Of a DNA stretch of 4,411 nt, positions 3,234-4,067 are shown in pieces. Origin of the DNA: Escherichia coli (GTDB taxonomy: Bacteria > Pseudomonadota > Gammaproteobacteria > Enterobacterales > Enterobacteriaceae); assembly GCF_003334385.1 (NCBI RefSeq), contig NZ_QOWN01000086.1, one strand, 5' to 3'. The position numbers were made by a program, and so were the translations under genes. Within the stretch, counting starts at the first letter, position 1, and the number at the start of each line of letters is the position of its first letter. Under the pieces are notes generated by a model. It did not search any database and was not told the origin of the DNA. It was given only the letters and a program-made list of their open reading frames with translations.

Positions 3234-4067
3234 ATGCATGAGATAAAAGTGAAAAATTCAGTCTCTGATGTTATTGAAAACAAAAGAACGAATGTTATTT
3301 ATTTGAAAAAAATTCGCTTTTGCAATTGTGTTTTAATATATTTAAAAAACGCAACAGGTAAAATACAACAAAATGGCGAGATAAGTAAAATAATACCTAT
3401 GAATTCTTTTATTTATATAGAAAAAAATTCTTCATTAAGTGTTAAGTTGAATAACACTGGGGGAACAGTATCTTATGAAATTTATCATATTGATAGTGGC
3501 ATGTTAAAAAATGTGTACAAAGTAATAAAGCCTCTATTTGATGAAGTTAAATCTTATCCTGCTTGCGCTCAGAAAATATTCATTCATGAAGCGCAGCAAG
3601 TTGAAATTGATGTTTTCAAGCTATTGGTATCATCAAAAGATAGCAATATCCGTCAAATATATAAAGTTGCTTACATTCTTTCTAAATTTCCCAACATTGA
3701 TAAACTTATGCTTTCTATCGAAAAGTCTATTAAAATAAGTTTTACAGAAAAAGTGAAAAACATTATTGAAACAGACATGTCAAAACAATGGCGTCTTTGT
3801 CATCTCAGTGACAAATTATTTATGTCGGAGGTAAATATAAGAAAAAAACTAGAAAAAGAAAACATCACATTTAATAATTTACTACTTGATTTAAGGATGA
3901 ACTTTTCCGCCAGACTTCTCAATACTACCGAAATGCATGTTAGCAACATAGCCAAGAAATCAGGTTATTCTAATGTATCTTATTTTATAAAGGTTTTTAA
4001 AGACTACTTCGGGGTTACTCCAAGACAATATAATCTCAAAATCCGTGGGAGAACGATGTGCCCGTAG
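3234..4067 (+). CDS. AraC/XylS-family transcriptional activator of the Rns/CfaD/AggR/PerA virulence-regulator subfamily (277 aa)
   Basis: Intact ORF, first ATG after an in-frame TAA at 3219-3221. The C-terminal ~90 residues (approx. 3759-4031) hold two HTH motifs: ...SKQWRLCHLSDKLFMSEVNIRKKLEKENITFNNLLLDLRMNFSARLL... and ...NIAKKSGYSNVSYFIKVFKDYFGVTPRQY. These align with my recollection of Rns/AggR (…ITIRKRLESE..TFNQILMQ.RM…SYFIR.F.KH.G.TPKQF) and PerA (…FMSDSCLRKQLNKENLTFKKIMLDIKM…SYFIKVFKEYYNTTPKKY). The N-terminal domain is not identical to any of these as I recall them. Very low GC and AAA/AAT/ATA-rich codon usage indicate foreign origin. No convincing Shine-Dalgarno before the ATG; an in-frame GTG at 3249 is an alternative start. 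Confidence 0.9.
   Translation: MHEIKVKNSVSDVIENKRTNVIYLKKIRFCNCVLIYLKNATGKIQQNGEISKIIPMNSFIYIEKNSSLSVKLNNTGGTVSYEIYHIDSGMLKNVYKVIKPLFDEVKSYPACAQKIFIHEAQQVEIDVFKLLVSSKDSNIRQIYKVAYILSKFPNIDKLMLSIEKSIKISFTEKVKNIIETDMSKQWRLCHLSDKLFMSEVNIRKKLEKENITFNNLLLDLRMNFSARLLNTTEMHVSNIAKKSGYSNVSYFIKVFKDYFGVTPRQYNLKIRGRTMCP

Follow-up and report, generated by a model that had tools for sequence, protein, structure and literature searches.

Regulators of the Rns/AggR type define the virulence regulons of enterotoxigenic and enteroaggregative Escherichia coli (ETEC and EAEC, respectively), and are drug targets by way of inhibition by fatty acids or small molecules. Members of the Rns/CfaD/CsvR/AggR group are functionally interchangeable, and EAEC is defined molecularly by the genes aggR, aatA and aap. 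A resident regulator of the Rns/AggR type switches on the dispersin/CexE-Aat genes and the fimbrial operons in EAEC, ETEC and C. rodentium (PMC7478709, PMC7344145, PMC6392122). The present analysis concerns a 4,411 nucleotide stretch of DNA from E. coli (NCBI RefSeq assembly GCF_003334385.1, contig NZ_QOWN01000086.1; termed the window), which at positions 3234–4067 encodes an intact AraC/XylS-family regulator of 277 amino acids (aa). The regulator is a very divergent, uncharacterised new member of the known Rns/AggR-type family and is not a new kind of system. On longer contigs it is physically linked to a chaperone-usher operon and to homologues of the dispersin/Aat genes, and it probably activates both. 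The linkage suggests a cryptic module that resembles that of EAEC and would be missed by the standard markers.

The regulator and its family

The gene and its two domains are located as follows.

3234–4067, + strand: gene for the Rns/AggR-type regulator of the AraC/XylS family; 277 aa from an ATG start, uninterrupted by stop codons
3234–3728, + strand: N-terminal regulatory/dimerisation domain, residues 1–165; a beta-strand barrel (strands at 21–86) followed by helices, as predicted from the structural model and its superposition on Rns/CsvR
3729–4043, + strand: C-terminal DNA-binding domain, residues 166–270; two helix-turn-helix motifs, from Pfam and alignment

Some gene callers and NCBI records use an alternative start, a GTG at codon 6 (window position 3249), which gives a chain length of 272 aa. 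Which start is used matters little for the protein, because residues 1–16 are predicted to be disordered in the AlphaFold2 model. The open reading frame list and the Pfam matches bear out the initial annotation of this DNA, which described an intact 277 aa AraC-family reading frame with a dual helix-turn-helix domain at its C-terminal end. HTH_18 matches residues 191–266 (E-value = 2.8e-14) and HTH_AraC matches with an E-value of 3e-9; both are C-terminal and there is no other Pfam match. Membership in the AraC/XylS family is shown by this C-terminal region of about 100 aa, in which both Pfam and the model place two helix-turn-helix motifs.

The similarity to Rns extends over nearly the entire chain. 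In a phmmer search of PDB sequences, residues 21–271 align with Rns residues 11–263 (E-value = 4e-29); CsvR follows (E-value = 2e-27), then GadX, in the DNA-binding domain only, and ToxT. The best NCBIfam scores are those of the HilD, Rns-like and HilC models, and none of the NCBIfam equivalog cut-offs is reached; the top score is 107 bits for the HilD model, whose cut-off is 354.

For comparison with characterised regulators, an Rns reference sequence was used that has 100% identity over 265 residues to the E24377A plasmid, together with AggR from pAA-09EL50, PerA from pMAR2, VirF from pWR100 and CfaD from pTW11681_100. MAFFT alignments with the regulator give these identities:

Rns: overall 28%, N-terminal domain 19%, DNA-binding domain 41%
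CfaD: overall 28%, N-terminal domain 18%, DNA-binding domain 42%
AggR: overall 29% (31.5% by BLAST), N-terminal domain 21%, DNA-binding domain 42%
VirF: overall 29%, N-terminal domain 23%, DNA-binding domain 37%
PerA: overall 27%, N-terminal domain 18%, DNA-binding domain 40%

Rns and AggR are 67% identical to one another, and members of the tight Rns/CfaD/CsvR/AggR group share more than 55% identity. The regulator, at 28%–29%, falls outside of this group. In a neighbour-joining tree it branches deepest within a separate clade, made up of uncharacterised regulators, which is sister to Rns/CfaD/AggR/VirF, with PerA elsewhere. The protein is also not a member of the PerA group, as seen from its 27% identity, its separate clade and the lack of bfp or perBC genes in the linked loci. 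The initial annotation had suggested a distinct member of the Rns/AggR/PerA-type virulence group, which agrees with identities of 27%–31.5% to the reference proteins and with the separate clade. It had also likened the HTH domain to both Rns and PerA; in the tree the protein is on the Rns/AggR/VirF side and not with PerA.

No near-identity to an already characterised regulator was found. The closest non-self protein in a collection of 5.8 billion proteins is 48% identical. An exhaustive scan of 1.84 billion representatives gives a best value of 47%, and only 22 clusters reach an E-value of 1e-30. A tblastn search of 72,556 plasmids has a best match of 45% identity. In public records the only name given to the protein is “helix-turn-helix domain-containing protein”. 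A sequence annotated as AggR in AP026505.1 (locus L021, 10028–10831) was rejected as a reference, being only 37% identical to Rns. This mislabelled protein is 30% identical to the regulator and is another uncharacterised member of the family.

Predicted structure

The AlphaFold2 model, for which 74 aligned sequences were used, has a pLDDT of 89.6 and a pTM of 0.83. By Foldseek the model superposes on Rns/CsvR with TM scores of 0.79–0.91 and an rmsd of 1.9–2.8 Å over 250–255 columns; ToxT is next (TM 0.63–0.70). The C-terminal domain of the model consists of seven helices that superpose on the DNA-binding domains of GadX and MarA. The N-terminal domain has the Rns-type fold despite low identity, because the model superposes on Rns/CsvR. 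The initial statement that the N-terminal domain matches neither PerA nor Rns fits its identity, which is only 18%–23%, yet the domain is homologous, as shown by the phmmer alignment of residues 21–271 and by the superposition. The full-length homology of the Rns/AggR type, including the N-terminal beta-barrel, is found by both phmmer and Foldseek.

The predicted recognition helices, SEVNIRKKLE and SYFIKVFKDYFGVTP in the regulator, differ little from SEITIRKRLE and SYFIRIFNKHYGVTP in Rns and are also close to their AggR counterparts. A similar DNA site is therefore plausible.

In Rns the carboxylate of decanoate is held by His20 and Arg75, and in ToxT the carboxylate-binding residues are Lys31 and Lys230 (PMC8329261). 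In the alignment, Rns His20/Arg75 correspond to Cys30/His85 of the regulator, and Rns Lys216 corresponds to Phe224. Relatives in the same clade have mostly Tyr and His/Tyr at the His20/Arg75 positions. A ligand pocket may still exist in the regulator.

Linked chaperone-usher and dispersin/Aat genes

The initial annotation described the regulator as an orphan. This holds for the window, where the open reading frame list shows no fimbrial, pilus, adhesin or secretion gene, but on longer contigs one operon is found 3.5 kb upstream and another 8 kb downstream. The regulator is an orphan at the scale of the window only.

All ten contexts retrieved with the exact protein sequence display, on the minus strand, genes for a PapD-type chaperone (247 aa), an 812 aa usher and a 186 aa FimG/StaE-like subunit. 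This chaperone-usher operon is located 3.5–7.5 kb upstream of the regulator, beyond an insertion sequence (IS) of the IS91 family, and occupies positions 2550–6468 in locus L002. Inverted C-terminal remnants of IS630 bracket the operon in L002, at 6661–6879 (− strand) and 2143–2400 (+ strand), and look like the relic of a composite transposon.

Downstream of the regulator there is about 8 kb of IS debris, followed by genes for a 122 aa dispersin homologue (L002 18943–19311) and an FtsX-type permease. This is seen in both of the two contigs that reach far enough. A second set of contexts was anchored on the AatP-like permease, independently of the regulator sequence, and in four out of four of these the regulator is within 10 kb. 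In this set the dispersin-like gene comes first and is followed by homologues of AatP (353 aa), AatA (399 aa), AatB (270 aa), AatC (210 aa) and AatD. One of the four, L012, is a rearranged arrangement in which an IncFII RepA gene is 5 kb from the dispersin-like gene, and the linkage is kept there.

Comparison with the proteins of pAA-09EL50 gives the following identities:

Aap 43%, AatP 38%, AatA 30%
AatB 39%, AatC 56%, AatD 42%
chaperone with AggD 26%, usher with AggC 26%

No homologue of AggA, AggB or Aar was found in this comparison. The locus does not hold the canonical EAEC pAA gene set, as its homologues are only 26%–56% identical.

The 122 aa protein matches dispersin PDB 2JVU with an E-value of 1.5e-19. 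Substrates of the Aat system carry a Sec signal peptide and, directly after it, a Gly/Ser-rich stretch headed by an invariant N-terminal glycine, which is the site of acylation (PMC7943197). In the 122 aa protein the signal ends in ...NTFA and the mature sequence begins GGNNGWNAD, so that the N-terminal GGNNG fits the glycine rule for an Aat substrate of the dispersin/CexE class; the aatP, A, B, C and D homologues are immediately downstream.

The GC content of all three gene blocks, i.e. regulator, chaperone-usher and dispersin/Aat, is 30%–34%. The association with adhesin genes that is typical of Rns/AggR-type regulators is thus found here: the gene is AT-rich, both operons are within 10 kb of it and the contig is of IncF type. 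Inspection of 10–20 kb on either side, with both operons on an IncF-type contig, supports the earlier suggestion that the regulator may control a colonisation factor encoded elsewhere on the replicon.

The IS-bounded cassette

The regulator gene (27%–30% GC) is in an AT-rich cassette. The GC fraction is 0.27–0.31 across positions ~2550–4050 and about 0.5 in the flanks. The GC profile and the Pfam matches agree with the initial description of an AT-rich cassette with an rve-type remnant at its left and an IS66 end at its right. The remaining features of the window are these.

1–112, − strand: remnant of an IS630-family transposase, corresponding to the L002 open reading frame at 6661–6879 (−); megablast matches IS630 family transposase genes
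573–2380, − strand: IS91-family element with an intact 327 aa Y2 transposase at 804–1787 (Pfam Zn_Tnp_IS91 and Y2_Tnp)
2348–2587, + strand: left boundary of the cassette, C-terminal remnant of an rve-type (DDE) transposase; Pfam rve_3 match at 2348–2584, E-value = 8e-6, in agreement with the precomputed annotation
2588–3233, + strand: AT-rich non-coding region 5′ of the regulator, the presumed promoter and 5′ region; GC about 0.30
4147–4332, − strand: right boundary of the cassette, C-terminal remnant of an IS66-family transposase; DDE_Tnp_IS66_C match at 4150–4332, E-value = 4.6e-17

The IS630 remnant at 1–112 is the edge of the chaperone-usher operon, which starts some 300 bp beyond the left end of the window. 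The IS91-family element separates this operon, just outside of the window, from the regulator cassette, and is about 90% identical in DNA sequence to transposase genes on thousands of enterobacterial plasmids. The IS66 remnant ends about 80 bp past the regulator stop codon; on longer contigs an IS110 element is next. There is no open reading frame with a family match in the region 2588–3233. Generic scans of the window for sigma-70 promoters and terminators, an Rfam scan and a repeat search gave nothing over background. With the entire window as query, megablast against plasmids gave nothing but IS91 matches and was uninformative.

At the far left of the chaperone-usher contig, L002 encodes a 115 aa immunity-like protein (73–420), which is a very common plasmid gene present in 4,455 blocks of the collection. 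Elsewhere (L015–L018) this protein adjoins a lasso-peptide-like microcin cluster, with Asn-synthase-like, transglutaminase-like and ABC transporter genes, and colicin genes; in L002 the IS elements and the chaperone-usher module replace this neighbourhood. An attempt to extend the contig leftwards by means of the 115 aa protein reached unrelated colicin/microcin plasmids.

Distribution and conservation

The identical regulator protein is present on at least 155 contigs, both from E. coli draft genomes (e.g. GCA_900449675.1 and GCA_012649405.1) and from metagenome assemblies. The dispersin-like protein is present on 288 contigs. None of the three gene blocks has a megablast match in PLSDB (72,556 plasmids) or in 5,426 complete E. 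coli genomes. A distant blastn search of plasmids and complete E. coli genomes with the cassette gave only a 136 bp match of 73% identity, in the region coding for the DNA-binding domain.

Across 14 fetched loci the regulator coding sequence is intact in every case and is the same except for two synonymous changes. In most loci the chaperone, usher, dispersin-like, aatP, aatA and aatC genes are undisrupted. Identity among all copies is 99.8% or more; because of this a dN/dS test is impossible and selection is not measurable. A metagenomic copy (L007) lacks 44 bp at window positions ~3161–3204, just 5′ of the regulator start, and its cassette is otherwise identical.

Candidate promoters

The AggR site is WWWWWWWTATC, located 21–23 bp upstream of the −10 element (PMC6392122). 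Five regions were scanned by this published rule, with shuffled sequences as a control. The dispersin-like gene displays a perfect composite of the AggR type: ATTAATTTATC, a 21 bp spacing that includes a T-tract, and TATAGT, ending 77 bp before the ATG. An equally good match arises in shuffled sequence with a frequency of 0.05. The chaperone gene has a weaker match, AAGGATTTATC with 23 bp and AATGAT (shuffle frequency 0.07), and the fimbrial subunit gene has one match with a shuffle frequency of 0.21. The scan showed no composite AggR-type promoter 5′ of aatP. In the region 2588–3233 there are two sites of the WWWWWWWTATC type, and a sigma-70 scan of this region shows no enrichment. These promoter matches are suggestive, not decisive.

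The promoter region of the dispersin-like gene (L002 18828–18892) also has a run of 12 G just 5′ of the candidate site, and a run of 12 T in the spacer between TATC and the −10 element. Changes in these homopolymers could alter the spacing and lead to phase variation.

Proposed function

The regulator would be a functional activator of transcription, of the same type as Rns and AggR. Its N-terminal beta-barrel domain would dimerise and may bind a ligand. The C-terminal double helix-turn-helix would bind AT-rich sites with a TATC core about 21–23 bp upstream of the −10 element. As is established for other members of the family, activation is expected to proceed by recruitment of RNA polymerase and relief of silencing of AT-rich DNA. 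In this model a colonisation module, AT-rich and gained by horizontal transfer, is carried on an IncF plasmid, and the protein would be its master regulator. Its likeliest targets would be (i) the dispersin-like coat protein gene with the adjoining aatPABCD-like export/acylation genes and (ii) the chaperone-usher fimbrial operon across IS91. It would appear orphaned in the 4.4 kb window because insertion sequences broke the module into pieces. What the analysis shows is the family membership, the fold, the intact gene, its physical linkage and the homology of its neighbours; the activator function, the DNA motif and the controlled genes are what we infer from the family and from the neighbouring genes. 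Activation of the dispersin/Aat and chaperone-usher adhesin genes of this plasmid by the regulator is regarded as probable, with considerable room for doubt.

Several observations weigh against it. The regulon is deduced from physical linkage together with one good motif match, and the motif tests are individually weak (p about 0.05–0.07, with five regions scanned). There is no composite site 5′ of the regulator itself, though rns and aggR are autoactivated. As the copies are at least 99.8% identical, the linkage represents one young plasmid lineage in two arrangements, without independent replication. Dispersin/Aat genes were not found within 10 kb of the divergent relatives in the clade. A tblastn search with Aar and an ETEC ANR gave nothing in about 40 kb of linked sequence, although ANRs are short and divergent and the sensitivity is low; the IS66 end is about 80 bp past the regulator stop, and therefore a downstream gene could have been lost. 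The carboxylate-binding residues of the Rns/ToxT type are not conserved in the aligned regulator sequence, and therefore control by fatty acids as in Rns cannot be assumed.

Also against the model, some of the linked genes are broken. In all loci examined the aatD-like reading frame is broken in two, the parts overlapping (L014 13561–13854 and 13776–14843; the same in L011 and L013), L012 has an extra aatD frameshift at about 14210, and in L011 aatB is broken and reduced to 89 aa (12403–12672). This is due either to gene decay or to homopolymer assembly errors in very AT-rich DNA. In addition, the chaperone-usher operon has a single pilin-like gene left.

These breaks also favour a different explanation, that the regulator is a stranded remnant. 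In this case insertions of IS91, rve-type, IS66 and IS110 elements would have cut it off, the module would be decaying, and the gene would be intact only as it is young, being silent or without working targets. The IS remnants on both sides of the cassette, the IS debris of about 8 kb before the dispersin-like gene, the IS630 remnants on either side of an operon with one pilin-like gene, the near-identity of copies that leaves selection unmeasurable, and the absence of an AggR-type composite promoter 5′ of the regulator are all in keeping with it. It is nevertheless unlikely. The reading frame is intact in every locus, including the four that were found independently of its sequence, with only synonymous changes, and a native upstream region of 640 bp is kept. 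The element recurs: at least 155 contigs carry the regulator and 288 encode the dispersin-like protein, and most of the linked genes remain intact in most loci. Canonical pAA plasmids are equally rich in IS elements yet are functional.

Alternatively, the regulator may be functional with its real targets elsewhere, on the chromosome or at other plasmid loci such as an autotransporter gene, and its proximity to the two operons would reflect the clustering of AT-rich cargo on a mosaic plasmid. Relatives in the clade adjoin SPATE autotransporters, a YadA-like adhesin, omptin or type II secretion genes and not dispersin/Aat. Only about 40 kb of plasmid was inspected, the contigs being 131–210 kb, and AggR also controls chromosomal genes (PMC6392122). 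Against this are the perfect AggR-type composite promoter before the dispersin-like gene, the survival of the linkage through the L012 rearrangement, and the lack of a second AraC regulator in the inspected parts of the plasmid. Further, in every organism studied the Aap/CexE-Aat genes belong to the regulon of a resident Rns/AggR-type regulator (PMC7478709, PMC7344145). Distant targets are thus judged to be quite improbable.

A housekeeping or stress regulator of the AraC family (GadX, YdeO, AppY or a metabolic type) located on a plasmid by chance is effectively refuted, since the partial C-terminal matches to the NCBIfam GadX and YdeO models (about 71 bits) are confined to the DNA-binding domain and are far under the curated cut-offs, the protein matches Rns, CsvR and ToxT both over its full length and in fold, and the gene is plasmid-borne, 27%–30% GC, IS-bounded and beside adhesin and coat-protein genes; the housekeeping placement named beforehand as an alternative was accordingly not seen, with NCBIfam cut-offs unreached and the fold that of Rns/CsvR.

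Activation of the linked dispersin/Aat and adhesin genes is therefore the reading retained here. A larger claim would be that the regulator is the master switch of an unrecognised aggregative-type colonisation system of human-gut E. coli, in which a divergent AggR-like activator drives a new chaperone-usher adhesin and its own dispersin/Aat coat, carried on IncF plasmids that are not yet in any closed genome or plasmid database, and missed by all current EAEC markers (aggR, aatA/CVD432 and aap). This is put forward only tentatively, and the balance is at present against it. If true, it could explain some marker-negative isolates that are adherent or associated with diarrhoea. Alternatively, the architecture could be a general colonisation device of commensals and not a pathotype marker.

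Comparison with known systems

PerA, the regulator of BFP and LEE in enteropathogenic E. coli, is likewise a virulence regulator of the AraC/XylS family, comparable in size and encoded by an AT-rich plasmid gene; it differs in that no type IV pilus or perBC genes are near the regulator described here.

The closest sequences are unnamed AraC regulators of the same clade (WP_074425395.1, WP_101973962.1, P0002, P0003 and P0055), with 40%–48% identity. They are encoded on Klebsiella and E. coli plasmids beside CS22-like or AfaD-type chaperone-usher operons and/or SPATE genes, and none has been characterised. Chaperone-usher operons are neighbours in four of five contexts and SPATE autotransporters in three of five. 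Among individual loci, P0003 (L029/L030) has a YadA-like trimeric autotransporter and a SPATE, and P0055 (L031/L032) has a SPATE, a chaperone-usher operon and an omptin. P0006 (L033/L034) has a six-gene fimbrial operon directly upstream. L019, from Klebsiella plasmids, has CS22-like fimbriae, and L020 has a SPATE, an AfaD/usher pair and type II secretion genes.

Genes termed aap-like and aatPABCD-like, 30%–47% identical to the EAEC genes, have been described in E. coli from travellers' diarrhoea that have none of aggR, aap and AAF; an unknown adhesin mediated the adherence of two of these strains to HEp-2 cells, and no associated regulator or fimbrial operon was reported for the module (PMC7251025). 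Identification of the present module with these genes was withdrawn, as the published aap-like protein (supplementary figure 2 of that paper) is only 53% identical to the one linked to the regulator (L002 18943–19311), which is therefore a different lineage. Counting Aap, CexE, the published aap-like protein and the one linked to the regulator, dispersin in E. coli has diverged into at least four lineages. The regulator is thus tied to a third or fourth dispersin/Aat lineage and to an uncharacterised fimbrial operon, and together with the linked adhesin it is a candidate for marker-negative adherent strains like those of PMC7251025. Strain NCTC 86 has a chromosomal Aat/dispersin homologue and an AAF-like chaperone-usher system, with no AraC regulator mentioned (PMC5382810); it was considered as a possible instance of the same element, and sameness could not be shown.

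Rns, CfaD and CsvR, the master regulators of ETEC colonisation factors, have the same AraC/XylS two-domain organisation, with a chain length of about 265–277 aa. As in those cases, the present gene is AT-rich, plasmid-borne and near chaperone-usher pili and a dispersin/CexE-Aat system. One difference is that cfaD has an adjacent ANR gene, whereas none was found near the regulator. The changed positions corresponding to the Rns ligand contacts make the protein a natural test case for the generality of fatty-acid control in the family.

EAEC has been defined by aggR plus AAF or CS22 (Boisen et al., PMC7500659). By that definition the element has neither the aggR nor the AAF/CS22 component. Its chaperone and usher, about 26% identical to AggD/AggC, resemble type-1/Lpf-like systems, and DNA probes or PCR for aggR, aatA (CVD432) and aap are not expected to detect the module. 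Recurrence in drafts and metagenomes, together with absence from the closed genomes and plasmids searched, suggests that the design of activator, adhesin and coat is wider and more diverse than the pathotype scheme assumes. The value of the locus is that it displays this design in a lineage invisible to current markers and missing from closed genomes. In its organisation the locus is most readily compared with the pAA plasmids of EAEC: here as there, an IncF plasmid carries one AraC activator, a chaperone-usher adhesin operon, a dispersin gene and aatPABCD, all AT-rich and scattered among insertion sequences.

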